A stretch of 64,000 nt of DNA from Eledone cirrhosa. Its lineage: Eukaryota. The stretch spans positions 380,308,001 through 380,372,000 of the forward strand of contig OZ024740.1 of assembly GCA_964016885.1 (NCBI GenBank), written 5' to 3'. The notes beneath the pieces were generated by a model that did no database searches, had not been told where the DNA came from, and was given only the letters and a program-made list of their open reading frames with translations. Below are positions 8,991-51,921 of this stretch, one piece after another (position 1 is the stretch's first letter; each line of letters opens with the position of its first letter). Position numbers and translations under genes: made by a program.

Positions 8991-9515
8991 GCGCTTTTAC
9001 ACATAGTCTTCTTTTTCTGATAACCGGTTCCAGCATTTCTTGTATTTCATTCAGATTCCTCTCTTCCATCACTCGTGAAAATAGCCCAGAGATGTTTGAA
9101 CTGTATCTGTGAATGTGTGGCTTTATATATACATATAAAAAATAAGTATACAAAAATAATAAGAAAATGAATAACAAAATTGACCAGCCTTCTTTTTTAC
9201 CCCTTGTAAACCGAAGCTGATGACCAGAATTAGAACCTTGACACTTTTACTCCATCGACCTATTTCCATTACGTTCCACTAACAATTCATATCCCCACCT
9301 CTAGCCTGCCTTATGCAAACGTTTGTACAGCCGTCTGATACTATATAAGTAATAACTTATGGTATCCTCCTCATCGAGTGCTTACATCTGATTACACTAC
9401 TATCGGTCTAATATTTGATCAACCAATACTGATTACTTAGAATTATATATATATATATATATATATGTATAATTCAAAGAAATCAGTATTGTATTGGTTG
9501 ATCAAATATTAGTCT

Positions 9516-9558
9516 ATCAAAGTACTTTCGTTGCACGGCTGCAACATCATCAGTTGTA
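9516..9558 (-). ncRNA. Minimal hammerhead motif in a short PLE 3' fragment (about 9468-9633)
   Basis: Reverse strand: caa-CTGATGA-tgttgca gccg tgcaac-GAAA-gtac-TT-tga. Core intact, stem I weak. Confidence 0.65.
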
Positions 9559-9630
9559 CTATTATGCTTCCTCCTATTGTATTGTATTGTATGTCTACAC
9601 CATTTTTATATTTTTATTTATTTATTTCTT

Positions 9631-9702
<72 letters not shown>

Positions 9703-9705
<3 letters not shown>

Positions 9706-9865
9706 AAAAGGTATTACCCCGACGGCTATTTCTAAATAACCGTCGAAACGGCTTGAGTTCTGCCGTCGGGGTCATAATTTTTCCTATTTACCACTCTACA
9801 ACCCTAAGTATTGAGTATTCTGTTGCGTTATGGTCCATCTGGTTCCTTACCACAATTCCTTTGTT
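9703..9865 (+). mobile_element. Hairpin-plus-tail mini-element H2
   Basis: Same sequence family as H1 and H3; left arm has an internal deletion between two gacggc repeats; lies in (TA)n. Confidence 0.8.
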
Positions 9866-9933
9866 ATATATATGAAAGACGTAAAATAAGAAAATTTTAA
9901 AAATTAAAAATTAACTTACTTACTAAAATTTTC

Positions 9934-10015
9934 ACTCCAACTAATTAGTTTCTGTAATGGGATAAAGATAGTTACGCAATGTAACCATCGAGAATTCATT
10001 ACGTCATCAGGGAGT
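9934..10015 (-). ncRNA. Hammerhead ribozyme (array, inverted copy 1)
   Basis: Reverse complement of the 11015-11096 motif, core intact. Confidence 0.8.
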
Positions 10016-10471
10016 CTATTCTCAGCTAAGTCTCCAGGCAATGCGCGGACACTAGGGACTCATATAAAAATAATAATTCGGTGGATGGAACAGCTAGCGG
10101 GGACCGAATTCCATAGCACTGAAAAAGTTCACTGTCTCTGGTCAAATGGCAGATTCTAAAGAATCAATCACGTGACACTGAGGCTAGTCGGAAGGAGTGG
10201 GGTGGTAAAATGACAAAAGCCTACTACCACTACAATGAATTAGTAGTGGATTTGGCAGGTTTGCTCAACAAATAAATAATTTGGAGATAAATATAGAGAA
10301 TTAGTATATTTACCAATATATGCGTACAGATGTACACTAATGCTAGCAAATACATAAGTTATGTCATAGTACCTAGGTCGTTCAATGCAGGAGGATGCAA
10401 AACAATTATATGAAAGACGTAAAATAAGAAAATTTTAAAAATTAAAAATTAACTTACTTACTAAAATTTTC

Positions 10472-10553
10472 ACTCCAACTAATTAGTTTCTGTAATGGGA
10501 TAAAGATAGTTACGCAATGTAACCATCGAGAATTCATTACGTCACCAGGGAGT
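10472..10553 (-). ncRNA. Hammerhead (array, inverted copy 2) with core mutation CTGGTGA
   Basis: tcaccag instead of tcatcag at 10542-10548 (A6G, expected inactive). Confidence 0.7.
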
Positions 10554-11014
10554 CTATTCTCAGCTAAGTCTCCAGGCAATGCGCGGACACTAGGGACTCA
10601 TATAAAAATAATAATTCGGTGGATGGAACAGCTAGCGGGGACTGAATTCCATAGCACTGAAAAAGTTCACTGTCTCTGGTCAAATGGCAGATTCTAAAGA
10701 ATCTGTACGCATATGTTGGTAAATATACTAATTCTCTATATTTATCTCCAAATTATTTATTTGTTGAGCAAACCTGCCAAATCCACTACTAATTCATCGT
10801 AGTGGTAGTAGGCTTTTGTCATTTTACCACCCAACTCCTTCCAACTAGCCTCAGTGTCACGTGATTGATTCTTTAGAATCTGCCATTTGACCAGAGACTG
10901 AACTTTTTCAGTGCTAAGGAATTCAGTCCCTGCTAGCTGTTCCATCCACCGAATTATTATTTTTATATGAGTCCCTAGTGTCCGCGCATTGCCTGGAGAC
11001 TTAGCTGAGAATAG

Positions 11015-11096
11015 ACTCCCTGATGACGTAATGAATTCTCGATGGTTACATTGCGTAACTATCTTTATCCCATTACAGAAACTAATTAGTTGGAGT
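11015..11096 (+). ncRNA. Type I hammerhead ribozyme (array copy 1)
   Basis: actcc-CTGATGA-c gtaatg..gatggttac attgc gtaactatc..cattac a-GAAA-ctaattag-TT-ggagt; palindromic stem III ACTAATTAGT; predicted cleavage after GUU at 11091. Confidence 0.85.
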
Positions 11097-11548
11097 GAAA
11101 ATTTTAGTAAGTTAATTTTTAATTTTTAAAATTTTCTTATTTTACGTCTTTCATATAATTGTTCTACATCCTCCTGCATTGAACGACCTAGGTACTATGA
11201 CATAACTTATGTATTTGCTAGCATTAGTGTACATATGTACGCATATGTTGGTAAATATACTAATTCTCTATATTTATCTCCAAATTATTTATTTGTTGAG
11301 CAAACCTGCCAAATCCACTACTAATTCATTGTAATGGTAGTAGGCTTTTGTCATTTTACCACCCCACTCCTTCCGACTAGCCTCAGTGTCATGTGATTGA
11401 TTCTTTAGAATCTGCCATTTGACCAGAGACAGTGAACTTTTTCAGTGCTATGGAATTCGGTCCCCGCTAGCTGTTCCATCCACCGAATTATTATTTTTAT
11501 ATGAGTCCCTAGTGTCCGCGCATTGCCTGGAGACTTAGCTGAGAATAG

Positions 11549-11630
11549 ACTCCCTGATGACGTAATGAATTCTCGATGGTTACATTGCGTAACTATCTTT
11601 ATCCCATTACAGAAACTAATTAGTTGGAGT
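11549..11630 (+). ncRNA. Type I hammerhead ribozyme (array copy 2)
   Basis: Same motif, one unit downstream. Confidence 0.85.
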
Positions 11631-12081
11631 GAAAATTTTAGTAAGTTAATTTTTAATTTTTTAATTTTCTTATTTTACGTCTTTCATATAATTGTTCTAC
11701 ATCCTCCTGCATTGAACGACCTAGGTACTATGACATAACTTATGTATTTGCTAGCATTAGTGTACATCTGTACGCATATGTTGGTAAATATACTAATTCT
11801 CTATATTTATCTCCAAATTATTTATTTGTTGAGCAAACCTGCCAAATCCACTACTAATTCATTGTAATGGTAGTAGGCTTTTGTCATTTTACCACCCCAC
11901 TCCTTCCGACTAGCCTCAGTGTCACGTGATTGATTCTTTAGAATCTGCCATTTGACCAGAGACAGTGAACTTTTTCAGTGCTATGGAATTCGGTCCCCGC
12001 TAGCTGTTCCATCCACCGAATTATTATTTTTATATGAGTCCCTAGTGTCCGCGCATTGCCTGGAGACTTAGCTGAGAATAG

Positions 12082-12163
12082 ACTCCCTGATGACGTAATG
12101 AATTCTCGATGGTTACATTGCGTAACTATCTTTATCCCATTACAGAAACTAATTAGTTGGAGT
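12082..12163 (+). ncRNA. Type I hammerhead ribozyme (array copy 3)
   Basis: Same motif. Confidence 0.85.
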
Positions 12164-12615
12164 GAAAATTTTAGTAAGTTAATTTTTAATTTTTAAAATT
12201 TTCTTATTTTACGTCTTTCATATAATTGTTCTACATCCTCCTGCATTGAACGACCTAGGTACTATGACATAACTTATGTATTTGCTAGCATTAGTGTACA
12301 TCTGTACGCATATGTTGGTAAATATACTAATTCTCTATATTTATCTCCAAATTATTTATTTGTTGAGCAAACCTGCCAAATCCACTACTAATTCATTGTA
12401 GTGGTAGTAGGCTTTTGTCATTTTACCACCCCACTCCTTCCGACTAGCCTCAGTGTCACGTGATTGATTCTTTAGAATCTGCCATTTGACCAGAGACAGT
12501 GAACTTTTTCAGTGCTATGGAATTCGGTCCCCGCTAGCTGTTCCATCCACCGAATTATTATTTTTATATGAGTCCCTAGTGTCCGCGCATTGCCTGGAGA
12601 CTTAGCTGAGAATAG

Positions 12616-12697
12616 ACTCCCTGATGACGTAATGAATTCTCGATGGTTACATTGCGTAACTATCTTTATCCCATTACAGAAACTAATTAGTTGGAGT
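12616..12697 (+). ncRNA. Type I hammerhead ribozyme (array copy 4)
   Basis: Same motif. Confidence 0.85.
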
Positions 12698-13149
12698 GAA
12701 AATTTTAGTAAGTTAATTTTTAATTTTTAAAATTTTCTTATTTTACGTCTTTCATATAATTGTTCTACATCCTCCTGCATTGAACGACCTAGGTACTATG
12801 ACATAACTTATGTATTTGCTAGCATTAGTGTACATCTGTACGCATATGTTGGTAAATATACTAATTCTCTATATTTATCTCCAAATTATTTATTTGTTGA
12901 GCAAACCTGCCAAATCCACTACTAATTCATTGTAATGGTAGTAGGCTTTTGTCATTTTACCACCCCACTCCTTCCGACTAGCCTCAGTGTCACGTGATTG
13001 ATTCTTTAGAATCTGCCATTTGACCAGAGACAGTGAACTTTTTCAGTGCTATGGAATTCGGTCCCCGCTAGCTGTTCCATCCACCGAATTATTATTTTTA
13101 TATGAGTCCCTAGTGTCCGCGCATTGCCTGGAGACTTAGCTGAGAATAG

Positions 13150-13231
13150 ACTCCCTGATGACGTAATGAATTCTCGATGGTTACATTGCGTAACTATCTT
13201 TATCCCATTACAGAAACTAATTAGTTGGAGT
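13150..13231 (+). ncRNA. Type I hammerhead ribozyme (array copy 5)
   Basis: Same motif. Confidence 0.85.
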
Positions 13232-13586
13232 GAAAATTTTAGTAAGTAAGTTAATTTTTAATTTTTAAAATTTTCTTATTTTACGTCTTTCATATAATTG
13301 TTCTGCATCCTCCTGCATTGAACCACCTAGGTACTATGACATAACTTATGTATTTGCTAGCATTAGTGTACATCTGTACGCATATGTTGGTAGATATACT
13401 AATTCTCTATATTTATCATCAAATTATTTATTTGTTGAGCAAACCTGCCAAATCCACTATGGAGATATAACAGATACAGAAACAAAAGCCAACCAAACAG
13501 TGAGTGTGTTCTGTTATTATTTCTGGCAATGTTACAACAATGTGACGCCCCCCAAGTATAACAATATAATATATATATATATATAT

Positions 13587-14399
13587 CCAAAATTAAAATT
13601 AAGGGTTGTCATGTCTGATAGACATGCGCCATATCCACTGTAGAATAAGCTCAAAGATTAGATCCGAGCATTACATATCAACTAGAAATAGATTGACATA
13701 TATATATATAAAATAAACATATGAAACAATCACAGGGAATAATTTGTAAAGAATGTAAGCACACATAGCTAGGTAGGTAACTAATTAAGGTTTAACTAGA
13801 ACTTCAAATATAGATACCTTTTTAAATGATTAATCTCCTTTGTATATATTTCTTTAAGTAAGAAATATATTTCACCTATTAATCCGTAAATAACAGCAGT
13901 TAAATTCTTTGATGTTCACCAAAGGAGAAGAAGATAACCATCTGCGTTTACAAAGCAAATGCAAATTTGTGAATGACTCGAACCACGTGTTGCATTTTTT
14001 TAAAAATCCACACATTGCACAGCGTCATCCCAGTGGCGTGAATAGGACCATCGACAGCCAGAAATAGCAGCCGAGCCTATTCAACTGAATTAGCTCAACA
14101 ATCAAGGGGCTGTATATATATCCAAAATTAAAATTAAGGGTTGTCATGTCTGAGAGACATGCGCCATATCCACTGTAGAATAAGCTCAAATATTAGATCC
14201 GAGCATTACATATCAACTAGAAATAGATTGACATATATACAAAGGAGATTAATCATTTTAAACGGTATCTATATTTGAAGTTCTAATTAAACTTTAATTA
14301 GTTACCTACCTAGCTATGTGTGCTTACATTCTTTACAAATTATTCCCTGTGATTGTTTCATATGTTTATTTTATAGATATATATATGTCAATCTATTTC

Positions 14400-14404
<5 letters not shown>
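13587..14404. repeat. TA-embedded element with a 535-bp-period direct repeat plus an inverted segment
   Basis: ccaaaattaaaattaagggttgtc... at 13587 and 14122; about 14232-14404 is the reverse complement of about 13680-13848. Confidence 0.8.
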
Positions 14405-14472
<68 letters not shown>

Positions 14473-14511: not shown

Positions 14512-14574
<63 letters not shown>

Positions 14575-14851: not shown

Positions 14852-14873
14852 ATATATATATATATATATAGGA

Positions 14874-14986
14874 GAAAGTATGACCCCGACGGCAGAACTC
14901 AAGGTGTTTCGACGGCTATTTCTGGACTAAAGTAAAAGTTTTTTAGTCTGGTAAATAAGTAGCCGAACTTATCAAGGGGTACTTCC
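14874..14986 (-). ncRNA. Hammerhead with U3-A8 core variant (left repeat)
   Basis: Reverse strand: ggaagtacccc-TTGATAA-gttcggcta...tagccgtc-GAAAC-..gccg-TC-ggggtcatactt; 5' strand of stem III mutated in this copy. Confidence 0.65.
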
Positions 14987-15775
14987 TTATATGGGAAGAT
15001 TGTAGTTGTCAAGAGGATTGGTCAAAATTTGTAGCAGACACAGAAAAGTCTATCGTGGCAGTAGGTGTGGGGTGGGGATGGCTGATCTTGCTTTTAGAAC
15101 GATAGGGGAATGGGTAGAGCCGGTCAAGCGTAGAAGGCGAAATCTACATGGCAAATTCTAAGGAATGAGTATGAAATTAGGCCAGAGGAGGTTGGCGAAA
15201 AAAGGTTTCTTTAGAAAGTGGAAGAGGGACGTTATAGAAATAGTAAAACAAAAGCGGTTAGGGGACAAAGAAAAAATATATTAAAAAAGGATATAATAAA
15301 AAATGAGAGAAAGATGTATCAGAATGTAAGGTTGGAAAGTGAGAAGTGAAATAAAACAAAAACTAAGGTTTCTAACACAGCTGCTATATTTAGTTGGTGC
15401 TGCTATATCCGCCAAAGCTATAGAATGAGTTGCTAGATGAGAATTATTGAAAATTAAGAATTAAAAATTAATACCACATCTCTGGGGTCTAACACAGCTG
15501 CTATGAATAGTTAGTATAGCGTAATCGGCGAATGCTATCTGTAAGTTACTGGGGAGGGGGTACTGAGGCTAAAGAGGCCCGATGGGCTGCCTAGGGGTAG
15601 GCCAAAGAGAAAAAAAAACAAAGAAACGAACGAGGAAGAAGTTCGGTTGTGGAAAGAAGAGATGGGGGAGACAAGGGGAGAAGAAAACATAGAGGAAGAG
15701 AAAAGAGGTACATCTACCTATATCAGTAGGGGTTTTCCCTATCTTATTCGGCAAGTGGGGTATTTCAGCCCTAGT

Positions 15776-17285
15776 TTACCCACCCGGATCGTTAGGGGGT
15801 TTGCGGGCGAGGTAAGTCTTCCGCAATCTGTGTTTGCATGCAGCTACCAGTTCGTCTTTTTTGTTTAGGAGTTGCTCCTTCGTAAACAGCTTTTGTAATG
15901 TTTCCTCCGTACATAAGTTACACGGACGGCGTCCCCCCGTGTAAGAGTTAGCTCTGGACAGTAAGCTCCAAGTAAGATGGTAAGTTATATTATTATCTTG
16001 GAGGTCCCAGATATGGACCGAAAGTGTGGTGGCATGTCGCCGGACTGGGTTTCGGAACGTATGTCGGTGTTGGTAGAGCCGGGTCTTAAAGTCACAAGCG
16101 GTTAATCCTATAAAAGCTTTGTTGGAGGTGTCCGTCCTCAGGTTGCACTGGTAGATCACGTTACGTTCTCGGTATCTGTTGTTGAGGGGGCACGTAGATC
16201 TATCAGGGCAGATACACCTCCTGGTCGGCTCTCCGCTAATTTCTAGGTTGTTTCTTCCATAGGGGTTGAGTTTTTTGTTGTTTGAGGAGATGATGTTTTG
16301 TGCGAAGTTAGGTGTGGTGCTGTAGGATAGCTTGATAGTGTTTTTGTTGATTATATTGTGGTAGCCGTGTTGTGGTGGAAAGTGTTTTTCGAGGAGCCTA
16401 AACAAGATTTTCCCGATAGGTGTTGCCACCTCGGCATTGTGGGGCGGATTGAACCACGTTACGTGGTGGGAGCGGCGCGTCGCCTGCTCGTTCTGCTAAG
16501 GGAAGCTGGATAAATGGATATTTCCTCCCGGAAGTCACTCCGCTTGAGGGCCTGGTTGTAATGAGGCGCATGTTCGTCGAATATCTGCTCATTAGCGGAC
16601 AAACGAGATATGCGGAGGGAGATGTTTTTTTCCAGATTATTGGTGATGTTTCTAGGATGGTTAGAGCGGCGGTGGATGTAGTGCAGGTTGTCGTTTGGTT
16701 TCCTGTATGGGTGGTACAGGTCATTTTCGAGGTTGAGGGTAACGTCCAGGAAATTTACTCGTGTTAGGGACGTTTGTAGGGTGATTTTAAATCCTCAGTC
16801 CCAGAAAAAGTTGATAAGTTGTTTACGGACCCGGTCTGTACTACTGAGGGTGTACCCTTTGAGGGTAAGAAGCCCATCGTCTCGGTACAATCCACCGCCG
16901 AATGCGGCAAACATTTCGGTGAGTTTAAATAGTAGGAATAATCCTATAAGATCTGTGACCTCGGCCTAATCGGTCGCGCCCCCGCTGACGTCGAAGGGGG
17001 AGTCGGGAGCTCTCTTTATCCACTTGGAGTTGTCGAAAAATAGAACTGTCTTCCTGGTGTGGAGGATGATATTTCTTTCCTGGTCGGTGATGGGCGTGAG
17101 TGTTTCGGCAAAGTCCAAGGCGGCCCTAAGGAGCGGTAAGGTAATAGATGCATAGTAACTATGTCAAACTGGATGAATTTTGTGTCCTGTTTGTCCTCAA
17201 TATTCCTGAACCATGATATTACTTCCTGGGTGCTAAACCATAGGCTAAGTCTCGCGTTTTGCTTAACTTTTGGTATAACGCGGTC
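15776..17285 (-). pseudogene. 5'-truncated, frameshifted PLE reverse transcriptase + GIY-YIG endonuclease
   Basis: [49 protein letters not shown]...FKTR...H, CNLC, CKH; homologous to ORF 18969-20717. Confidence 0.9.
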
Positions 17286-18024
17286 TTATATAGGTAGATG
17301 TACCTCTTTTCTCTTCCTCTATGTTTTCTTCTTCCCTTTGTTTCCCCCTATCTCTTCTTTCCACCACCGAACTTCTTCCTTGTTCGTTTTTTTGTTTTTT
17401 CCTCCTTTCGCCTACCCCTAGGCAGCCCATCGGGCCTCTTTAGCCTCAGTATCCCCACCCCAGTAACTTACAGATAGCATTCGCCGATTACGCTATACTA
17501 ACTATTCATAGCAGCTGTGTTAGACCCCAGAGATGTGGTATTAATTTTTAATTCTAAATTTTCAATAATTCTCATCTAGCAACTCATTCTATAGCTTTGG
17601 CCGATATAGCAGCACCAACTAAATATAGCAGCTGTGTTAGAAACCTTAGTTTTTGTCTTATTTCACTTCTCACTTTTCAACCTTACATTCTGATACATCT
17701 TTCTCTCATTTTTTATTATATTCTTTTTTATTATATTTTTCTTTGTCCTCTAATCGCTTTTGTTTTACTATTTCTATAACGTCCCTCTTCCACTTTCCAA
17801 AGAAACCTTACTTCGCCAACCTCCTCTGGCCTAATTTCATACACATTCCTTAGAATTTGCCGTGTAGATTTCGCCTTCTACGCTTGACCGGCTCTACCCA
17901 CACCCCTATCGTTCTACAGGCAAGTTCAGCCATCCCCACCCCGCATCCACTGCCATGATAGACGTTTCTGTGTCTGCTACAAATTTTGACCAATCCTCTT
18001 GACAACTACAATCTTCCCATATAA

Positions 18025-18136
18025 GGAAGTACCCCTTGATAAGTTTGGCTACTTATTTACCAGACTAAAAAAACTCTTACTTTAGTCCAGAAATAGCCGT
18101 CGAAACGGCTTGAGCTCTGTCTTCCGGGTCATACTT
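18025..18136 (+). ncRNA. Hammerhead with U3-A8 core variant (right repeat)
   Basis: TTGATAA at 18036-18042, GAAAC at 18102-18106; 3' strand of stem III mutated in this copy. Confidence 0.65.
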
Positions 18137-18669
18137 GCTCCTATTACCCACTCTACTACCCTAAGTATTGAGTACTCTGGTGCGTTATGGTCTTTCTGGT
18201 GCCTTACCACAACTCCTTCGTTATATATAAAAAGGGGTTGTGGTTTCCAGGTTGTTCTTGTAATTGAGAATACGTGTCATCATAAAACGCTCCAGCTGAG
18301 ATAATCGTGACTGTTCCTATATTTGTTCTTAAAGGTGAGATTTGCTTGAGATTTGGTTATTATCTTTAGTATTTGGAACCACATCATTACTGCTCCGTTG
18401 TTCACTCGTAGATAAATATTCTATATTCTCCAGTGACACCATCAAGTTAATGAATCGAATTTTGTTGAACGTTTCTATTTGTTTAAACCATAACAAACAA
18501 AATTGTTACAACACTATTTTAGTCATCTTTGATGATTTTGTTGTCTTTAAGAGAGGTTATCTATGAAAGCGATGAACAGTCAACCGCAGCTGGAACAAAT
18601 TACACCTTGAACTTTTATCACTTTAGACATTACCGTCAACAGATAAGTATATCACTGTACTTCTCTCTG

Positions 18670-18763
<94 letters not shown>

Positions 18764-18875
18764 GGAGGTGAGTTTTATTGTAGTACAATAAAGCAATGCA
18801 GATATCGGATAAGAAGCACTCTACAGTTTGTGGGACTGGAGTATGCATAATATAAAAGATGGTTAAAGGATAAAT

Positions 18876-20717
18876 CTCAAGGATCACAAAAACAATTTTC
18901 GCACTGAACTACCTGTTAGATTAATCGCCCCCTCTAAATCTGATCTGGGGGTTGTTAGTAAAGCCATCTTGGATAGGATTATCCCACAGGTTAGTTCTAA
19001 TTGCTCTTCTTTAAACCTAAATTTATGGTTTGGTACTTCTGAAGTGATTGGCTGGTTCAACAAATTGGATAATAAAAACAAACTAAAATTTATTCAATTC
19101 GATATTGCCAGCTACTATTCCTCCATTTCGCCTTCACTTCTCAATAATGCTCTATCTTTCGCACTTAAATATTCTGACATCACCACAGATGAACCTCACA
19201 TCATCCTCACCGCACGTAAAACCATCCTAGAGTTCAACAACGAATATTGGACCAGAGCCGATACCTCTAACAACTTCGACATCACAATGGGAGCATCCGA
19301 TTCATCCCAATTGACTGATTTAATTGGTATCTTCATTTTGAACTCTTTGAGTCGGAAAATTCCTCAACTTCGCGGTGGAATTTATCGTGACGATGGACTC
19401 TTTACTATCCTAAATTGCAATATAGTTAAACTTAATATTATTAAGAACAATATACGTAATCTCTTTAACCAACATAACCTAAAAATTGAATTTGATAATA
19501 GTACCAAACTAGCTAATTTCTTGGATGTATCTCTTAATCTTGACACTGGCCTATATTACCCTTACCATAAAAACAATGAGAATCTTAATTATGTTAACTT
19601 TAAATCTAACCATCCTACCAATATCAAGAATGCTATAGTTAATAATATTGGAAATAGAATATCTAACATATCTTCTAATAAAAACATCTTTGATGCTAAC
19701 GCCAATTACTATAATAACGCACTTTCTAAAGCTGGCTATCCAGATAAAATCAAATATAATAAAGAAACAAATTCTAGGAAAACTTACAGTAGAATATTTA
19801 ATCATAACCATTCCAATAATTTTAATAAAAGACCTAGATACAAAAACATAATCTGGTATAATGCTCCTTTCTCCATCTCTATTAATAACAATATTCCTAA
19901 ATTATTTTTTAGTGCCTTAAATAAATGCTTCCCTCCCTCACATATCTATAGTAAAATATTTAACAAACACACCATCAAATTTTCGTATTCTACATCCTCC
20001 AATATTTCCAACATCATCTCTAAACACAACAACAAAATATTAAATACTAAATCTCTTCCTTCCAATATTGAATTTCATAATAACAATAATAGTACTCCTG
20101 ACGTCATTGTAAACCCTAGGCTAACTTCTGTAAACCCAAATGCAACGTCAAACACAACTTCGCTAAATGTTCATAATCCAACTCTAAATCAAGAAACTAT
20201 TATTCCTATTATTCCTATCGCAAACAACTTCTCCAATCCAATTCCTTCTATAGATAACACTAGATCACTCATTAATAATCTCTCTAATTGCAACTGCCGC
20301 ATTAAAAATAAATGTCCTCTCAACAACCATTGCCTCGATAAAAACTTAATTTATGAATGTAAAATTATAACTAGCACCAATTCCTTCACCTATTTTGGCT
20401 CCACTTCCACCTCTTTTAAAGCTCGTCTCTATAATCATCATTCATCTTTCAAATACAAACTTAAAAGAACTAACACTGCTCTCTCAGAACTCATATGGTC
20501 CTTAAAAGACAAAAACATTAAATATAACATCTTTTGGAAAAAGATTTCTTCTGCATCCTCGTACTTGAACAGCTCTCTATCTAAAATCTGTAATCTCTGC
20601 CTAAATGAAAAATTTACCATTATCTCTAACCTAGAATCCATAATAAATAGACGCTCGGATTTGTTTTCCATCTGCCTGCATAAATTCCATAGAACTTTTC
20701 ACAAAGTATACAGTTAA
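18876..20717 (+). CDS. PLE RT + C-terminal GIY-YIG endonuclease, uninterrupted but N-terminally truncated
   Basis: In-frame LKDHK..P.RLI upstream of the ORF call; FDIASYY, ITMGASDS, IYRDDGL, NFLDVSL, CNC....CPL...C, LIYEC..YFGST..FKAR...H, CNLC, CLH. Confidence 0.9.
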   Translation, partial: LKDHKNNFRTELPVRLIAPSKSDLGVVSKAILDRIIPQVSSNCSSLNLNLWFGTSEVIGWFNKLDNKNKLKFIQFDIASYYSSISPSLLNNALSFALKYSDITTDEPHIILTARKTILEFNNEYWTRADTSNNFDITMGASDSSQLTDLIGIFILNSLSRKIPQLRGGIYRDDGLFTILNCNIVKLNIIKNNIRNLFNQHNLKIEFDNSTKLANFLDVSLNLDTGLYYPYHKNNENLNYVNFKSNHPTNIKNAIVNNIGNRISNISSNKNIFDANANYYNNALSKAGYPDKIKYNKETNSRKTYSRIFNHNHSNNFNKRPRYKNIIWYNAPFSISINNNIPKLFFSALNKCFPPSHIYSKIFNKHTIKFSYSTSSNISNIISKHNNKILNTKSLPSNIEFHNNNNSTPDVIVNPRLTSVNPNATSNTTSLNVHNPTLNQETIIPIIPIANNFSNPIPSIDNTRSLINNLSNCNCRIKNKCPLNNHCLDKNLIYECKIITSTNSFTYFGSTSTSFKARLYNHHSSFKYKLKRTNTALSELIWSLKDKNIKYNIFWKKISSASSYLNSSLSKICNLCLNEKFTIISNLESIINRRSDLFSICLHKFHRTFHKVYS

Positions 20718-20772
20718 TATTCAATTCTTTATCAATTTAGAATCTTTTCTCAAAGGCACATATACATACACC

Positions 20773-21205
20773 TCTTTAAAATATACCCATCTACCTTACT
20801 TTAAAGGGCATTATACACTCTATAATACTCGTTTACTCATTACCCTCATCCTATCTTCTCGTAAAACAATAACATTTGTTTTTGACATTTTGAGTATTCA
20901 TCCGCAATCATTATTATTTTTTCTCTCTATCATAAATCTTTTTAATCTCAATTTCATCCTTAATTTATTATTATATATTTTTTTTTTAATATATACTCAT
21001 ATATTCTTTAAAATATACCCATCTACCTTACTTTAAAGGGCATTATACACTCTATAATACTCGTTTACTCATCACCCTCACTCTATCTCCTCGTAAAACA
21101 ATAACATTTGTTTTTGACATTTTGAGTATTCATCCGCAATCATTATTATTTTTTCTCTCTATCATAAATCTTTTTAATCTCAATTTCATCCTTAATTTAT
21201 TATTA
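20773..21205 (+). repeat. ~200-bp direct duplication (period ~232) in the PLE 3' region
   Basis: tctttaaaatatacccatctacc... at about 20773 and 21005; a second, looser duplication at about 21405 and 21636. Confidence 0.85.
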
Positions 21206-21921
21206 TTTTTTTCTCCCCATCAACGAACTCATTATTAATAAATATCAATTCAATATACAAACTTTAACTTCACATTATTTTTCTCAAATCCTTCTACACA
21301 TAAACTTTTTCTCTTTGCTAATTTTAAAATTCCTACATTTCTTCTTTTGACGTTAGAATATTCACCCACAATTATTATTTTTTTCTCTCTATCTTCATAC
21401 ATAATTTCCCTTCGTTAATTTTCAAATTCCTTTAATTTATACATTATCTTCCAACGGTTCCCAACCTCTCTATATTAAAACATTATATCTTTTTCTCAGT
21501 TATAAAAACTATCTCTTTCTCTCTATCACCCATCTCTCCCTTTCCACCTTCACTCTCATCTCCTCCCCTTTTTTTCATCCTTTCCAACCCCCCCCCCCCT
21601 CCCTAAATATAATATATTTTTTCCTCGCACATATCCTCCCTTCGTTAATTTTCAAAATTTTTAATTTATACAGTATCTTCCAACGGTTTTCAACCCCTCT
21701 ATATAAAATATATCTCCTCTCAGTTATAAAAACTATCTCTTTCTCTCTATCACCCATCTCTCCCTCTCATCTCCTTCCCTTTTCATCCTTTTCTCTCCCC
21801 CCCTCTCTAAATAAAATATTTTTCCCAATATCACACATCAATCTAAAACCACTTTTCATATGTTGATTTAAAACTGCACTATCAACAAGTGTTTTTTTAG
21901 CCTTCATATCATGTTCTCCTG

Positions 21922-21988
21922 TTTTATCTGATGAAAACACAAATATTATTGTTTGATGATGTTTGTTTTTGAAATGCGCATAATAAAA
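21922..21988 (+). ncRNA. Type I hammerhead ribozyme of the PLE
   Basis: ttttat-CTGATGA-aaacacaaatattatt..gatgatgtttgttttt-GAAA-tgcgca-TA-ataaaa. Confidence 0.85.
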
Positions 21989-22020
21989 TATATTGAACTC
22001 CTTTAACCATCTTTTGATCT

Positions 22021-22066
<46 letters not shown>

Positions 22067-22107
22067 ATATTAAATAAATGGGAACTATATTTATAAAACC
22101 ATATTTA

Positions 22108-22168
22108 TTTTATTATATATATTTCAAGGGTAACCAAGACAACATTGGTATGCTTTCATCAGATAAAC
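22108..22168 (-). ncRNA. Type I hammerhead ribozyme
   Basis: Reverse strand: tttat-CTGATGA-aagcataccaa..ttggttaccctt-GAAA-tatata-TA-ataaa. Confidence 0.8.
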
Positions 22169-23265
22169 TACAAAGTTTGTTTTATAAATAGAGACATACC
22201 CATGAAAATCATACCTTATCGGTTGGAAATTCACTGGATAGTGGAAATATATTAGGGATTATTCAAACTTATGTGTGAATATGCAAATGAATATATACAA
22301 ATTTGAAAAACAACCGTTTATTTAAATGACACTAGAGAAAAAGAGAGAGAAAAAATATAAGTGGATAAAGATAAAAAAATATTACGAGAGAGATAGAGAG
22401 AAGAAATTAACAAGAGCGTGAATAAAACTGATATAACGTTAATTTGGGGGAAATATATTCTAAGTATATATCTAATAGTACGTGTATTTACGATCAATTA
22501 GTTGTTTAAAATTCTTTGCTAATATAATATTTTCTGTTATAAGTATATAGAAAAATAAATAGATAGAAAAATAGATAGAAAATAAATAAATAAATAAATA
22601 TTTAAAATAAATAGATAAATAGATAAATAAATGAATAGATGGGTATATCGTGTTATAGATAATTGTTTTAATGAGTTATGAGAGATATTGGTTTTGTATT
22701 TAATGTACGTAAATATTAAATTAAATTAAGTTAACTGAGTTAATAAGAATATTTATATTTATATATTTTAAAATGGGAAGATACGGAAAAAACTCGTTTT
22801 GTTTATTTATTCGTTAGTATGAGACTATTTTGTCAAAATAAGTATAAATGTTGAAAGATATATTTAGCCAGAATTAGTTAGTGTTTATAAATCTAATAAA
22901 AGATATTGAAAAAATTATTAAAAATTCGAGAAAATGTTTTAAAAAAATAATTTATAAGAGATAAGTAATTTTTTTTAAAATAAGTAATTTTTAAAAATAG
23001 ATTAAAAAAATTAAAGAAATAAAATATAAAGAATTTAAAATTATTAAGATTAAAATTACAATTAAAATTTTAATTTAAATTTTAAAAAATTAGAATTATA
23101 TATGTATATATTTTATGAAACTTTAAGAAGTGAAATTATAGCAAATGTTATAGATATGATTTAGAGATATCAATATATTAAAACCAAGTGGATAAGATTG
23201 TTATGGAAATAAGTAGAAATATTATAAGTGTAATTATAATTTATATATAGTTCTAAATGTTGAAT

Positions 23266-23860
23266 TCAGGCGATGTCTACAATAACTAAATAAATTCGTC
23301 CTATATTATAGAGTTTACGTATGAAAAAGAATTCCTCAAAACACAATTTGCAGAATCTAGATAAAGCTGTGTTTCGGTACGCGGGTGCTTTCGAAATTAT
23401 TTCCCAAGTTAATGAATAGTGCATATTTTTGCATTTTAAGTTCCATACCAGGTTTGAAAGAGAAGTTGAAGATTTTTTATCAAATCTTTGGAAAGAGCAT
23501 TTGTGATTATTCCATCGACTTTTAAATTCTGTAGAAGTTTCACCTACATAGTTAAATATATTATCACTTGTTTTGGCTGTACATTTATAGACCACGTCCT
23601 TATCTAAACACTTATTTTGTAAAGGACAGTTTAATTTAATTCTACAGTTACATTTTGCGGAGTTTTGTTATTCCGAACGGTACTATTATATTGCTAGAGA
23701 TATTACTGCTATTTTGATTATTTTGGTTAGGGTTTAAATTTGTATTATTGATTCTATTTATATTTTGTGCTATGTTAATAGTAGTAGAGTAAGATAGTTT
23801 TATAATATGTCTGTTAAAGATTGAGTGGTATCTGTGGGCTTTAGGAAAACAGATACCACT
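23266..23860 (-). pseudogene. PLE GIY-YIG endonuclease fragment, frameshifted
   Basis: ORF pieces 23266-23595 and 23648-23860. Confidence 0.85.
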
Positions 23861-23910
23861 CAACATTTTTAGAGAATTTTTTGACAAGCAAAAGATAATG
23901 GTCAAGAGAA

Positions 23911-23984
<74 letters not shown>

Positions 23985-41699: not shown

Positions 41700-43672
41700 A
41701 TGGCTACGAAAAAGAATTTTCATAGGTCACTCCCACTCATTCCGTCTTATTCTGCCTCAATCGTCACTACAGCAGAGAGAAGATTGTCTCTCTCCCTCCC
41801 TTCTCTAAATGTGTCTCTCTCCCTCCCTTCTCTTTCGCAAGCGACGCCAGAAAAGAAAAATCACGTGCAAAGCGTGCAAGATTTCTCCACGACGACGACG
41901 ACAACGATGAAAAAGGTGTGCGGGAAATACGAAAACCCATTTCATTCGTCTGACGTCAGGAATAATAACAGTAGCAGCCGTAATAACAGCAGCAGCAGCA
42001 GAAGTGACAAGGAAAACAACAGTAGCAGCCGCAGCAGCAGCAGCATAAACAACAATAGCATTAGCAGCAACAACAACGGCAGCAACAACAACAACAACAA
42101 CGACAGCAACAGCGGCGGCGGCAGTAGTCGTAGTACCTGCAGCAACAACAAAAGTAACAGCAGATCTGACGACAACAACAACAGCAGCAAAGAAAAACCA
42201 ATCTCGTTTGCAGGTATCGCAAAGAACCTGGAAACCATCTTCATAACAAATGAGGAATTAGAGGAAACGAAGAAGATGGTGACAAAAACACGACACCGAG
42301 CAATCTGCAAGGCAGCCGAAAAATTTTTCGAAACCCAACAGCACTGTACGGTCACGTACCGTACAGTAAGCACAAAATCCCGTAGGGTTGAAAGAGCCAC
42401 AGAGGCTCAAATACAAAAAGCCTTAGGGTCTGTGTGGCAGCGGAAAACGCACATCACCCGAGGCAAGAAATATGCCACCGTAGACGTGCTTTTTGCCACA
42501 CCCCAGGAGGAAAAGGCTCAATCTTTAGTGACCCTAAGAAGCGAGGAAATGGTGTTGGTGCCCTCCTACTGCGGGCAAAACATTGTGAGGGTCAAACTGA
42601 CCCACGTCCCCCCCCCCCCCCCCCCGGGATGGCCCCTTCTTTGCTGGCCGCGTCTGTCCTCGTCGGAATCGAGGACAAAACAACTGTACTGCAAGTACAG
42701 AAAAAAGTAAGAGAAGATTGGGTCGGCACCTCCATTGAGATGTTAATCCAAACTAACCAGGAGTGCATCGAAGCTATCCCGGATGTGATAGACTTCGATA
42801 ACGGCACTCAACTGCCCATAAGTGTTGAGGGCAAACGCCCGAAATGCTTTCGCTGTTGATCGAAGACTCACCTCAGGGCCTTCTGCAACGAGAAAACCCT
42901 GAGAAAGGAGAAAACCCCCCTCCTTCCGAAACCGGCTCCACGGCTACCAGCAACAAGACAAGCGGCAACCAGGAACGATAGGTCCGTGGCACCCATACCC
43001 ACGCCACGGAAATCAAAAACAGCAGCAGCAGTGGAAGCATTAACAACAACAACAGCAATACCAAATGCAGCTGCAACAGACTCCAGTGCAAACATCACCA
43101 ACAACAACAAGTGAAAGAGTGGAGCTGGTACCCCTCCCCGACCTCACAGAATCAGAATGGAGTGTGAGGTGGGAGAGGGATGGCAAATGGTCGTAAGAAG
43201 GCACAAACGCAGAAGCAGCGCATCGTTGCCTTCGAAAAGGGAGGAAAGAAATGAAAAAAGGGTAAAGGCTACTGCAAAGAGACTCACAGCAGCAACACCA
43301 CCAACACCATCACCACCCACACTAGCACCACCATCACCACCGGCGACAACCCCACCGCCAACAACAACAACACCTTCAACACCACCACCACAAGCACCAA
43401 CATCGCAAACACAACAACAAAACACACACACCCAGCAACAACGACAAGAAAATAGCAGAACCACACCCCACCCCCAGAAAAACAAATGCACGGCAATAAA
43501 TACACACAACAAGAAACTAATGACTTACATAATTGAACACACAGACATTTCACAACACGACTACATAATACCAGCACCAATCAAAACGCCAACTAACATA
43601 AGACTGGTAAAAATAGCACAGAAACAATACACAAACATTAAAACGAAATTCCCCAACGCACACTTTCTCTAG
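41700..43672 (+). pseudogene. LINE ORF1 (gag-like), disrupted
   Basis: Frameshift at the poly-C run (about 42608-42625); VEGKRPKCFRC*SKTHLRAFC CCHC knuckle with a stop; GWQMVVRR motif; S/N and P/T low-complexity tracts. Confidence 0.75.
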
Positions 43673-43853
43673 GAGGGACTCTCAACCGAAGAGTATATTC
43701 GGACATACTCATAGAAGAGCCGACGACCAGCCGAAGGGACGATTCGACGGTCCCTTCACCAGACGATCAAGTGAAAAGGGATGGAAAAACCATCCTTCCT
43801 CTACGAAAAGTACGGTAAGTGGTCTTTCCCATCTTTTCCACTCTATTTTAAAC

Positions 43854-46800
43854 ATGACCTCACTCAGAATAGACAGCATAAATGCGCGTGGCTTGGGGTC
43901 GTCATGGAAGCAGGGTCACCTGCTCAACGACCTCAGGTCACTAAACATAGATGTAGTGGCCATCAGCGAGACCAGAATCTCCGAAGCACGGGCCTTCGCA
44001 CCGATCTTCGGCGGCTACGATGTGTACGCATCTCCCAGCCGTCCTGGATCGGGGGGAGGAGTTGCTGTGCTTTTTCGGAGAGGTTTGGATCTAGCCATAC
44101 GTGCCATCTTCCTGGACCCAGAGGGTAAGTTGGTGGTGCTGGATGCGACCAGCGGAGACGGGCAAGCTTTCAGGCTAGTGGCCGTCTATGCCCCGACAGG
44201 AGCAGGGCGGCCTGATTTCTTCCGGCGTCTGGAGACCTTTCTTGGAACGTCCCGCTCTTTAGTGCGAGTGGGCGACTGGAACGGGATCTTAGATGCACGC
44301 TGGGACTGTGTGGGATTAGCGGATAGGGGTGGAGGGTGCAAGAGCCTCACCAACCTGCTCAGGCGTTTTGAACTGTCTGACAGGTACCGAATGTGCCAAT
44401 GTGGACTTGGACAAATCGCATAGGGACATCCAGATCATATCTAGATAGAGTATTTTGTAGGGAAATAGATAGGTCTAGCATAGGCTGTCCACAATTCAAT
44501 ATAGTCAGCTACACGGACCACAAATTCGTGATCTGTGTGCTTGACTTAGATAGGCTTCATAGACGAGGACCCGGCTACTGGAAGCTAAACGCGTCCTTAC
44601 CAGCGCGCAAAGCCTACAGAGACCGGATTAGCGAACTAGTTAAGCAGGCGTTGACGGGGACCATCGTCAACAACAAGTGGTGGTTTGCTCTGATAAGAGC
44701 GATTAGAATAGAATCGATTAGGTTTAGTAAGGCTTTAGCAATAGAGAAAAATAGAGCAGAGGGAGAACTAGTTAGAAAATTAGACGAGGCGCTTAGCAAA
44801 GGCATTGCGACCGACGTGCTTGCGGCGAAATTGGCCCTTGACCAATTCTTCAATGCAAAGCACGAAGGCTGCGTTGTCAGAGCTAGGGTGCGTGCTCTCA
44901 GACACGAGGGGACGAAAGCCGTTCAATGGGCCCGAGTGGCGGAGGCGCGTCGTGGCAACAAAGCCACGATCCGGTCTTTGGTGGACCACGACGGGCGCAT
45001 ACTACTCGATCCCGGGCAAATGTGTGAAGCTTTTCAGCGACACTTCGCTCAGCTGTTCGGGGAAAGCGGTGGGCCGGGTCGGGGGATGGACTTTAGTGTC
45101 TACCTCGACGGACTGCCGCGGCTCTCGGCCACTGAGGCGGAGTGTTGCGAAAAGCCGATAACAGCCGCTGAAGTAAGGGAGGCAATGACTGGCTGCACAA
45201 GGGGTAAATCGCCTGGTTTGGATGGTCTGCCCTAAGAACTTTACGTACAGATACCAGACTTGTTCGGAGGCCTCTTGGCGGACGTCTACTGCAACTGGCA
45301 ACAGAACGGGAGAATTCCCAGTTCTGTGAGCCGAGGAGCGGTGGCACTGCTGAGAAAGGATCCGAACAAGGGGGATAACATAGATAATTTCAGGCCCATA
45401 ACTCTGCTAAACACAGAGTTCAAGATTTTGGCCAAGGTGCTAGCAAAGAGGTCGGCGCTTGTCGTTGGTGGCCTGGTGGGAGAGGCGCAGACATGCACCA
45501 TTCTCGACAACCTCCACCTCCACGACAACCTGCACCTCATGCGATACATCGTAGAGAGGGTAGCTAGGGAACCTGGCACGGGTGGGTCCTTGATCAATTT
45601 AGATCAGTCGAAAGCTTTCGATAGGGTCGACCATCGTTACCTATCGGCAGTCCTGAGGGCGACTGGCTTTGGGCCCGTCTTCAGAGGCTGGATCGCTGCC
45701 ATGCACAGCGACATCTGCTCTGTGGTGAGAGTGAAGGGTCACCTTTCGGAACCGTTCAATATCATGCGCTCGGTCCGCCAAGGATGTCCCCTCTCGTCCC
45801 TCTTGTACGTATTGACTCTCGAGCCATTACTGCACAAACTGGAGACGTTGAGGGGTGTCCTGCGCGAACTAGGATGCGGAAGATCCGTGTCAGCATATGC
45901 GGACGATGTCACCGTAGTGGTGTCGAACGCCAAACGCATCGAGGCGATCGGCACTACACTAAGAGAATACGAAGCGGTGACAGGAGCAATGATCAACCAG
46001 GAAAAGTCAGTGGGCCTACAGCTCGGCACCTGGAGAGGCAGGTCCATGCCGTCCAACAGCGTCGTTGGACGCTGGACAGACGGACCGGTTAAATTGCTAG
46101 GGGTCTGGTTCGGTCCGGACCTCCAGACGGACAAAAACTGGGACGAGGTGACGAGCAGGGTGGCTTCTCTCACCCAGAAATGGGCGGAGAGGAAGCTATC
46201 CCTGAAAGGTCGAGCGGAGGTGGCTAACGTGTACATCGCGTCTGTCATCTGCTACCGCCTGACCGTCGAACCTTGTCCTAAGCCCCGCCTGACTGCGCTG
46301 GAGCGTTTGCTCTTTCGCTTTTTGTGGAAGGGACGCGCTCCAATGGTCAGGCGGTCCAATTGCTGTCAACATCCGCTACGTGGAGGGCTGGGCATGCCGT
46401 GGCTGATGATGCGCAGACACGCGCTCAGGCTACGACATCTCCACCTCTTCCTCGACGGTGATCAGGTGTGGTCGCCGTTTGCTAGACACGTATTTCCCCA
46501 GCTCGTTTCCTTGACGGAACTGCAGTCCTGGGTCAAGCGAAGACCGAGAGGGAGCGCCTGGAGACTGGAATGTCTTCAGGCGCTCACAGCCCTCGACCAA
46601 TCGGGCAATGTGATCGGTGGAAACTCCACCTCGGCGTTCTATAGAGGATTAGTGGAGGGGAAGAGCGACGACGTACTTGGGGAAACTCTAGGCGTCGACG
46701 AAAATCAACTAGCCAATCTCTTCGGAAGAACTTTCGGGCCGGGACCTATGGACAATTTCCAGAAATCTCTGGCCTGGCAGTGCTACCGAGGAGCCTTGCC

Positions 46801-47266
46801 AGTTTGGGACAAACTCTACAGGCATGGATGTGCCGTCAGCCGGGCATGTCCGAGATGCGCCGCGCAGGGCGACGAAACCGTCCTGCACGCACTCGTCCAG
46901 TGTCCGAAAATTGCTGACTTGTGGGTTTATGTCGAACACCTTCTGTCGCGTGTAAGACGGATCCAGCTATCATCTGAGTCCATCGTGAGGATTGCCCCGC
47001 CCTCTTCCTTTAGCCGGGAAGGGCAGGCAGTTTTTATCTGTCTGGTGGCCATGGCGAAAGAGATAGTATGGTGGACACGTTTGAAAGGGCTGAAGACGAG
47101 CACTTACCTCTTCGGTGATGCCCTGATTGACTTTTTCAAATTTCATTTGAAAAGGAAAATCAGAGTAGAGAGGGAAGTGCTCTCTTCCCAGCATTTTGTT
47201 GAAAGATGGGTGAGAGAAGCAAGAATGGCCCGAGTGAATGGGCCTACTCTGAATACGTATCTGTAA
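43854..47266 (+). pseudogene. LINE ORF2: APE endonuclease + RT + C-terminal zinc finger; one frameshift (~44390) and one stop (45233)
   Basis: SINARGL, ISET, VYAP, GDWN, SYLDR, TDH, GYWKLN, KSPGLDGLP, FRPITLLN, DQSKAFDRV, VRQGCPLS, AYADD, CPRC...ETVLHALVQC. Confidence 0.95.
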
Positions 47267-50500: not shown

Positions 50501-51060
50501 TGCTTCGAATGCTTCCTCCGTTCTCTCAACCTCTTCACCTTCATTTCCCACTGGCTCGTTTGTCTGGCATACTCCACTCTCCATTTCCAACCTAATCTCT
50601 CTGCTCAGTTCCTCCAGTTCCAACTCGCTTATCTCTCTATTAGTTCTTATTACCCGAACCTGCCCGGCAAAATTTTTGTTCATCTAATTTAAATAGACCA
50701 ATCTCGTTCCAGATGTTATGCATCTGTTTCCTATAGCCTTTTTCCTTGGGGTTACTCTTCAGGTAACATTGCATAACAGTTCTATTCAATTCTTTCGTCC
50801 AGTTGGTTCTTGTCCCTTTCCTTCTTCTTCTTCCTCCAACACCAACACTATTTGGATGACAGCCAGGTCCCTGCTGCTGGGCCAGGGAGCACTTGCTGAG
50901 TGAGAATCTGTCACATAACGTTCCAGTCTCCTCTTCACCGTTATTCGAACTGTTTAGGTTCGACCTTTAAACACTCATATCGAGGATTGGTGAATGTATG
51001 GTTACATAACCATCGGTGATTTCATAACCCCCGGTAATTTTAGCATGGCACTATCACGCT
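47569..51060 (-). mobile_element. R4/Dong-clade non-LTR retrotransposon (RT, CCHC, RLE), frameshifted; 5' boundary approximate
   Basis: N-terminal WTKELN..VMQCY...GYRKQM..IW; YRPITSL, EQKGC, DYKKAFD.VPH, RGIFQGD, HLLFMDDLKL, YKYLG, RLYL.R..GGRGL, CRIC...ETVAHIVSEC, RPDLVV..LIVDVACP; 3' end abuts (TAA)n. Confidence 0.92.
47643..48638 (-). pseudogene. C-terminal CCHC + restriction-like endonuclease segment of the R4/Dong ORF
   Basis: 331-aa open segment with RHD, RPD..D motifs and VPIVIGALG. Confidence 0.9.
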
Positions 51061-51607: not shown

Positions 51608-51798
51608 GGATTGGCAGTATCGGTAGAGGGTCGGACGCCATGCTTTCCAGCATAGTTACGTCCCTTTACGATCTGAGTTCAAATCCCGCCGAGGTTGACT
51701 TTGCCTTTCATCCTTACGGGGTCGATAAAATAAAGTACCAGTAATGCACTGGGTAATTGCTGGCCTTGTGCCTAAAGTAGAAACAATTATTATAATTG

Positions 51799-51845
<47 letters not shown>

Positions 51846-51846
51846 G
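51608..51846 (+). mobile_element. SINE family A with long (ATT)n tail
   Basis: Full set of motifs; a truncated copy also lies at about 51341-51440. Confidence 0.9.
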
Positions 51847-51921
51847 ATATTTGCTCTACGGTTTTATATATACTTATATATTATATATATACAGAGAGAG
51901 AGGGATATATATATATATATT

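Follow-up and report, generated by a model that had tools for sequence, protein, structure and literature searches.

A non-coding hammerhead repeat family in Eledone cirrhosa with insertion ends of the PLE type

The repeat array described here lies in a 64,000-nucleotide stretch of the Eledone cirrhosa genome, which is referred to as the window, and belongs to a family of several thousand loci in whose unit a tail of the Penelope-like element (PLE) type is linked by a spacer to a type I hammerhead ribozyme (HHR). The element is best explained, with a probability of about 0.8, as a non-autonomous PLE, i.e. a non-LTR retrozyme, and the family shows the testable marks of non-LTR retrozymes except for the size range given in 2020. 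Mobilisation of animal retrozymes by PLEs has so far been argued from co-occurrence and pLTR similarity. The ends of the copies analysed here, which fall at two fixed 3' sites termed A and B, suggest an enzymatic link between retrozymes and PLEs that was earlier mostly assumed. The strict pairing of A with B, the structured 120-nt tail and the terminal (CT)n make this link and the mechanism of PLEs directly testable; moreover, the terminal (CT)n hints at telomerase-like repeat addition by PLE RT, and a ready candidate helper exists in a young coding PLE family of this genome, of which many intact ORFs are present.

In the window the array spans positions 9869-13459 and comprises 6.72 units of 534 bp, arranged in two arms that are joined head-to-head via a microhomology of about 3 nt (Table 1). 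This agrees with the initial reading, made from the sequence only, of about 6.7 near-identical non-coding units: units of the minus and plus arms are 97-99% alike, ATG-started frames in a dimer of the unit reach at most 41 aa, and no similarity was found between the array and the neighbouring PLE proteins. The inversion, which had been likened to those of the neighbouring PLEs, has its counterpart in the inverted arms with short and long ends of these coding elements. The array had also been placed within (TA)n, which is correct for its left end, where the minus arm terminates at the fixed 3' site B and is joined to TA, but not for its right end, which reaches 43 nt beyond the usual A end of the family and is fused to another common repeat by a short microhomology. 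The true A end was probably removed by a deletion, and the array counts as one of the 16 head-to-head pairs with an atypical end that are considered below.

Table 1. Features of the array and its surroundings (positions in the 64,000-nt window)
Feature	Position	Strand	Remarks
Separate 165-bp inverted stub of a neighbouring PLE family (14868-18229 type)	9704..9868	.	own short and long ends; outside the retrozyme element
Inverted arm of the array	9869..10703	-	unit positions 307-534, one full 538-nt unit, unit positions 1-65
Type I HHR, intact	9934..10015	-	
HHR with A6G core change	10472..10553	-	core at 10548 reads CUGGUGA
Direct arm of the array	10701..13459	+	unit positions 141-534, four full units (534, 533, 534, 534), unit positions 1-228
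Type I HHR, intact core	11015..11096	+	GUU site after 11091
Type I HHR, intact	11549..11630	+	5-bp stem I with 11-bp extension, palindromic stem III
One monomer, cleavage site to cleavage site	11626..12158	+	predicted unit-length RNA
PLE-type tail	11691..11806	+	bounded by site B at unit position 65 (11690 in the window) and by site A at unit positions 174-185 (about 11799-11810 in the window)
Covarying hairpin in the tail	about 11742-11793	+	
Type I HHR, intact	12082..12163	+	
Type I HHR, intact	12616..12697	+	
Type I HHR, intact	13150..13231	+	
Another common repeat (part), joined to the end of the array	13450..13575	+	microhomology
Broken coding PLE	14868..18229	-	inverted arms, one ending 85 nt further (tail)
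Coding PLE, truncated; its family is active and has Hydra-clade motifs	18762..22021	+	3' HHR (21928), B end (22021) and, at 18762, an inverted tail

Seven type I HHR sites were located in the array, with cores at 11020, 11554, 12087, 12621 and 13155 on the plus strand and at 10010 and 10548 on the minus strand. Cleavage of the plus strand is predicted after 11091, 11625, 12158, 12692 and 13226, and the position 11091/11092 named by the sequence-only reading is correctly placed at its GUU site. The same reading had ascribed a complete HHR to every unit; six of the seven cores are indeed intact (CUGAUGA), but the seventh carries the A6G change, which on the strength of its sequence probably renders it inactive. 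Stem II is extended, as had been proposed, but in two parts and with a C.A mismatch at its base (C after CUGAUGA, A before GAAA), the two nucleotides flanking the usual G-C pair; beyond it come 6 bp and, after an internal loop, a hairpin of 9 bp. Such a mismatch could slow the HHR. It has a precedent in the U.U mismatch at the base of helix II that is described for axolotl HHR_Amex2 (PMC7229834), and an additional residue lying between 9 and 10.1 has been described in PLE HHRs (PMC4209133). A GAGAA/UUCUC pseudoknot is possible between stem I and stem II, and both of its sides barely vary.

A search of the array for Rfam hammerheads, which had been suggested as a check, returned no match at gathering score or at E<=10, so that the HHR was identified from its motif, its folding and covariation. 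In an alignment of 28 distinct HHR regions, hand-picked from 95 distinct sequences, the structure was paired in 91.9% of cells, compared with 86.1% in shuffled and 33-46% in slid controls, figures that do not represent a probability because the aligned sequences are related. One pair of stem II occurs as UA, AU, CG and GC and another as GC and UA, while in the outer hairpin of stem II both sides have changed in 6 of 9 pairs. The HHR is maintained by structural selection. In the folded monomer an inactive structure is favoured by 3.8 kcal/mol, the core pairing with the palindrome of stem III (P about 0.85), and the palindrome itself has a computed energy of -9.0 as a duplex versus +3.2 as a hairpin. 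Judged by these folding energies it is reasonable to expect that the HHR probably cleaves as a dimer, as the palindromic stem III had already been taken to indicate. Among the dimers of Xenopus retrozymes, in vitro cleavage is reported for one of nine and none for the other eight in a recent preprint (bioRxiv 10.64898/2026.07.22.740005).

Genome-wide, the exact HHR patterns gave 9,169 (3' part of the HHR) and 9,116 (both cores) matches, and since the reversed controls gave 0 these matches are not due to chance; the exact tail pattern gave 4,649 matches, again with 0 for its reversed control. The first 100 HHR matches, grouped by eye, represented 63 loci, which extrapolates to roughly 5,000-6,000 loci, and a search of the genome with the unit returned 2,661 candidates, full-length matches being 94-99% identical (40 scored). 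The dispersed loci with varying copy number and 5' phase that the sequence-only reading had anticipated thus number in the thousands. Its description of the element as young holds for the subfamily, given the identity and full length of these matches, but the few differences between units, on which it was based, date the local expansion and not the insertion. The 158 loci examined further comprised the 38 top BLAST matches, 60 of the above 63 loci, 40 from the tail list and 20 from the both-cores list, and form a non-random sample, the 38 being the best matches and 100 loci coming from the first 81 Mb of one contig (C1). Unit length ranged from 522 to 594 bp in 72 units, with a GC content of 0.34-0.38, and the units formed 14 clusters at 6%, differing by up to 22% from the window unit; the family hence includes at least 14 subfamilies.

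No tRNA-like gene was found, and a Pol III promoter was set aside in view of several runs of T4-T6 on the sense strand. A metagenome scan with the HHR pattern gave 0 matches. In the literature consulted, mostly open texts and exclusive of Repbase and Dfam, we found no description of this retrozyme family, no cephalopod retrozyme and no (CT)n stuttering by PLE RT; the supplements of PMC8557442 and of the above preprint may hold a related consensus, and the accessible text of PMC13282606 mentions neither hammerheads nor retrozymes.

The PLE nature of the family is indicated by the ends of its copies. Counting from the cleavage site as unit position 1, the arms have two fixed 3' ends lying 120 nt apart, B at +65 (class limits 60-70) and A at about +180 (165-200), and variable 5' ends. 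At 139 loci, 222 of 244 arms ended at A (118) or B (104), and TA was found outside 114 of the 118 A ends and 103 of the 104 B ends. Among 89 head-to-head pairs, 73 combined an A with a B end, none combined A with A or B with B, and 16 had an atypical end; all resolved inverted pairs (73/73) are accordingly A+B. Similar results were obtained for a divergent subfamily with B at 80-81, in which all 14 inverted pairs, counted from coordinates at 21 loci, were A+B. The arms mostly abut or overlap by a few bases at their junction, and the RNA contains AUAU at both sites. The tail is confined to one end of inverted insertions, and its hairpin shows double changes at two pairs, in 6 and 7 of 14 sequences, respectively. 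In addition, 5' truncation, partial tandems and an inverted 5' copy are all present in the family. Together, the A and B ends, the (TA)n and the 5' truncation bear out the earlier suggestion of mobilisation by TA-targeting PLE machinery. The (TA)n in which the ends sit would mask any target site duplication (>4 bp expected when present). L1-style twin priming with a block at B was rejected as a rule, as 50 of the 73 A arms exceed 185 nt in length, crossing the cleavage site.

A second feature of the ends is the presence of (CT)n with at least three repeats at 47 of 115 terminal A sites compared with 1 of 135 internal ones (Fisher p 8e-18). The single internal case is a mis-called terminus, internal sites carrying one or two CT, and the terminal runs are 3-38 repeats long. 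This distribution suggests RT slippage or stuttering at initiation as the simplest cause of the (CT)n, although the targeting of pre-existing compound microsatellites could account for it as well. At the other end of the arms, 11 of 89 late 5' stops are located 1-30 nt beyond the cleavage site (p 0.0015) versus 2 in the 30 nt before it, as would be expected if HHR-cleaved 5' ends had served as templates. This is only suggestive, because positions 385-504 are equally enriched for 5' stops (25) and A/T-rich.

The coding PLEs next to the array have the same layout as the retrozyme, HHR - B - tail - A in (TA)n. Both coding copies and the stub in Table 1 possess short and long ends in (TA)n, with tails of 85-90 nt. 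In the family of the truncated element at 18762 the HHR has a long stem II and a palindromic stem III and lies about 45 nt before the B end. A full ORF of this family, found elsewhere in the genome, encodes 821 aa with DKT, CxCX5C and CxxC/CxH around E and N, and with RWK appearing as RWT. DKT, CxCX5C and CxxC/CxH are given as marks of the Hydra clade in PMC8557442, and the assignment of the 18762 family to this clade is one by motif reading (motifs, canonical HHR and (TA)n target) rather than by a tree. The best 150 genomic matches of the 821-aa ORF are 99-100% identical and have no stops inside the match; intact autonomous PLEs therefore coexist with the retrozyme family in this genome. A BLAST comparison of the retrozyme unit with the 18762 coding family gave no match. 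Four loci that had appeared to contain coding partners (L013, L080, L117, L178) turned out on inspection to be separate insertions or chimeras, and several partner matches of 69-84% were dropped as artefacts of TA runs. Because no autonomous partner with shared sequence was found in the neighbouring family or at the 158 loci, the helper is deduced from anatomy, and the 18762 family is put forward as a candidate helper and architectural model only.

The sequence-only reading had regarded the array as the integrated cDNA of a rolling-circle-copied monomer. According to this explanation, a single circular RNA of 534 nt was copied round repeatedly to give the cDNA of each array, whose length records the rolling-circle turns; this is possible but not what we would favour. 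It accords with the precision with which arms cross the cleavage junction, at least two junctions being present in one arm at 36 of 100 pattern-selected loci, and with the finding that, at multi-unit loci, the nearest unit came from the same locus for 25 of 33 units. Most shared variants span all segments of a locus, and at three loci (L002, L026, L137) a variant is common along one arm and missing in the other, as though the arms had been copied from separate, homogeneous templates. Moreover, internal initiation makes a circle a workable template (PMC11167929), the circular fold of the unit is stable (z -4.4, 60% paired), and known retrozymes are described as forming circles (PMC7229834). The distribution of variants within arrays, in contrast, is difficult to reconcile with repeated copying of one circle. 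In the plus arm of the window array, units P1-P4 share a 4-nt deletion and 79A that are absent from the terminal P5 and from the minus arm, and 98G and 372G are present in P1-P4 as well as in M1 and lacking in P5, P0 and M0. Likewise, five other loci (L021, L030, L035, L038, L113) have variants in a subset of units with the common allele in the terminal segments, and at L038 the variants alternate with a two-unit period. In the window as well as at L003 and L035 variants are shared in register between the arms, and five junctions in one arm, as in the window, were found at none of the 100 pattern-selected loci. Gene conversion between arms could mimic in-register sharing. The subset and in-register variants fit a heterogeneous multimer template with local expansion better than a copied circular monomer, and the window array is best read, from its variants, as the insertion of a short multimer whose inner unit was expanded later.

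Two further explanations were considered. An unsampled coding PLE that has this unit as its pLTR or 3' end, and the copies as its truncated products, is improbable. The unit does resemble the 3' ends of the coding neighbours in layout, and the genome contains 41,959 RT candidates; the sequence comparison covered the neighbouring family and the 158 loci. However, in every tandem examined (72 units) the tail joins the spacer and HHR directly with no ORF between them, at least 14 subfamilies retain the short unit, and the unit was fused to a coding PLE at 0 of 158 loci, three flagged cases being separate insertions; the unit is found neither solely as the terminal repeat of a coding PLE nor solely at this locus. 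Slightly less credible again is a minisatellite spread as DNA, or an assembly artefact, with the HHR as a passenger. The internal units of the window array do look locally amplified, and spread of the minisatellite type may account for the number of copies at this locus. The family is not explained in this way: more than 130 independent loci show TA targeting, the A+B rule and 3' ends that are fixed while the 5' ends vary, compensatory changes are found in the HHR and in the tail hairpin, and units P1-P4 differ from one another.

For the element as a non-autonomous PLE, the following mechanism can be proposed. An RNA of more than unit length would be made from tandem copies and bound in trans, probably at the tail hairpin, by a PLE RT-endonuclease, most likely of the TA-targeting Hydra type. 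The enzyme would cut both strands of (TA)n, and each DNA end would prime reverse transcription at an AUAU patch inside the RNA, site A serving one end and site B, 120 nt upstream, the other. In this scheme the end positions and their pairing are observed in the copies, and the biochemistry of priming is modelled on an anole PLE, whose protein, as described in PMC11167929, nicks and extends both strands in vitro, initiates at two internal sites on either side of the tail and uses uncleaved RNA, HHR cleavage not being needed. The RT would often slip on CUCU at site A, adding the observed (CT)n, read through uncleaved HHR junctions and stop at variable places. The two cDNAs would then be joined head-to-head via 0-5 nt of microhomology to give the inverted arms seen in the copies, or only one arm would be kept, and long arrays such as that in the window would, judging from their variants, be extended subsequently by local duplication. 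The HHR probably cuts as a dimer, releasing monomers that may circularise, and as template for copying a linear multimer seems somewhat likelier than a circle.

A more specific and rather doubtful extension of this mechanism would invoke a PLE protein dimer of fixed geometry, which sits on circular or more-than-unit RNA with one subunit at each of sites A and B and thereby primes every two-ended insertion asymmetrically. Its telomerase-related RT would add (CT)n, and probably (TA)n, by slippage at initiation, the family thus both targeting and making host microsatellites, and recognition would depend on the structure of the tail hairpin without sequence kinship to the helper. Two tests for an origin of both arms from the same RNA were negative. 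Of 45 insertions, 25 had arms that lay nearer to one another than to all foreign units, and in 16 the arms lay farther apart (p 0.21), and alleles unique to both arms were found in 4 of 44 cases versus 3 of 44 controls, so that apparently private variants, which were judged against the 8 nearest units, are mostly lineage variants.

Metazoan non-LTR retrozymes (PMC7229834; bioRxiv 10.64898/2026.07.22.740005) resemble the window family in having a single type I HHR in each of their non-coding tandem units, a GC content below 50%, thousands of copies, a weak palindromic helix III and coexistence with PLEs, and retrozymes have been argued to be non-autonomous PLE derivatives (bioRxiv 10.64898/2026.07.22.740005). 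In contrast to the experimentally studied retrozymes, the window family has a longer monomer and a two-part stem II with C.A at its base. The unit, which had been termed large, exceeds the range of 150-450 bp given for retrozyme monomers by Cervera and de la Pena (2020; PMC7229834), but lies within the 51-972 bp reported in the 2026 preprint of Li et al. (bioRxiv 10.64898/2026.07.22.740005). Furthermore, the family occurs mostly as short dispersed inverted insertions and not as the long satellites known from other retrozymes, and differs from them in the PLE-type tail and two-site ends documented here.

A similar picture emerges from the comparison with PLEs. As in the Hydra-clade PLEs (Craig et al., 2021, PMC8557442; PMC3846280), for which inverted copies and a tail of 30-40 bp on one end are described, the window family targets (TA)n and shows 5' truncation, partial tandems, an inverted 5' copy, a tail on one end only and an HHR near the 3' end. 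It differs from them in the absence of an ORF, in a tail of about 120 nt (85-90 nt in the coding neighbours), and in having no sequence match to a coding family, as far as the neighbouring family and the 158 loci are concerned. Non-coding parasites of PLEs with head-to-tail multicopy insertions are also known from Chlamys, e.g. MRC1 (PMC8557442). A mechanistic parallel is the anole Poseidon element PAc (Frangieh et al., 2024, PMC11167929), with which the family shares two internal initiation sites flanking the tail, extension of both strands and the use of uncleaved RNA. The start sites of PAc are not homologous to the cut DNA and the strands do not differ in bulk, whereas in the window family AUAU at both sites matches the target, and an insertion never uses the same site for both of its ends.

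The studied array, built of non-coding, hammerhead ribozyme (HHR)-bearing units, is bordered on either side by pieces of another common HHR-bearing repeat (window 9500-9633 and 13450-13575), and both the array and the 165-bp stub, an inverted Penelope-like element (PLE) piece at 9704-9868, appear to be nested within an inverted insertion of greater age. A small TA-flanked element lies at 13578-14412 and also occurs in several of the loci fetched from the same genome. Compound (TC)n(TA)n runs at 14512-14572 and 18662-18760 resemble those at the A ends of the studied element, its fixed 3' ends at about +180.

The studied element also occurs elsewhere in the genome. Its array at L038:2511-5937 contains six junctions, and the sequence variants there recur in every second unit, a pattern suggestive of a repeated dimer. 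At L178:2753-3264 an arm of the element is joined to the 3' portion of a coding PLE from a different family.

The coding PLE family represented by window 18762-22021 and by loci L140-L168 is very young and carries Hydra-clade motifs. Its tandem period is approximately 3.9 kb, 821-aa ORFs are intact in many copies, and an N-rich stretch separates the RT from the endonuclease. The (TA)n tract at 22021-22061 is common to the 18762-22021 element and a third PLE. In the PLE family of window 14868-18229 and 9704-9868 the terminal region is a hairpin containing GAAAC; a motif scan found no canonical CUGANGA core near the 3' end, and this family has either a variant ribozyme or none.

Additional HHR families were observed in the genome. 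A second tandem family, at L059:1-1060 (G000:C1:22620400-22621460), consists of almost identical 311-bp units, and one copy of the studied element sits beside this array, inserted at an ATAT site. Stem III is likewise palindromic in a further, dispersed family, whose stem II is short and has a U.U mismatch at the base. Within the window, a 200-bp SINE-like repeat with many copies was noted alongside the broken ORFs listed below.

Coordinates of hammerhead cores and repeat features in the window and at fetched loci (L)
Feature	Location	Strand	Detail
Flanking common repeat, HHR core	window 9526-9553	minus	
Small TA-flanked element, direct parts	window 13578-13704, 14113-14239		
Small TA-flanked element, inverted parts	window 13672-13852, 14230-14412		
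Third PLE	window 22061-23983	minus	own HHR at 22162
Broken non-LTR retrotransposon ORFs and GIY-YIG PLE fragment	window 42392-47266, 47643-50966, 51796-52788		
311-bp family, HHR cores	L059: 238, 549, 860		
Short-stem-II HHR family, sites	L017:1799, L024:1029, L025:2066, L041:499, L078:2005, L081:2153, L104:17, L116:2879
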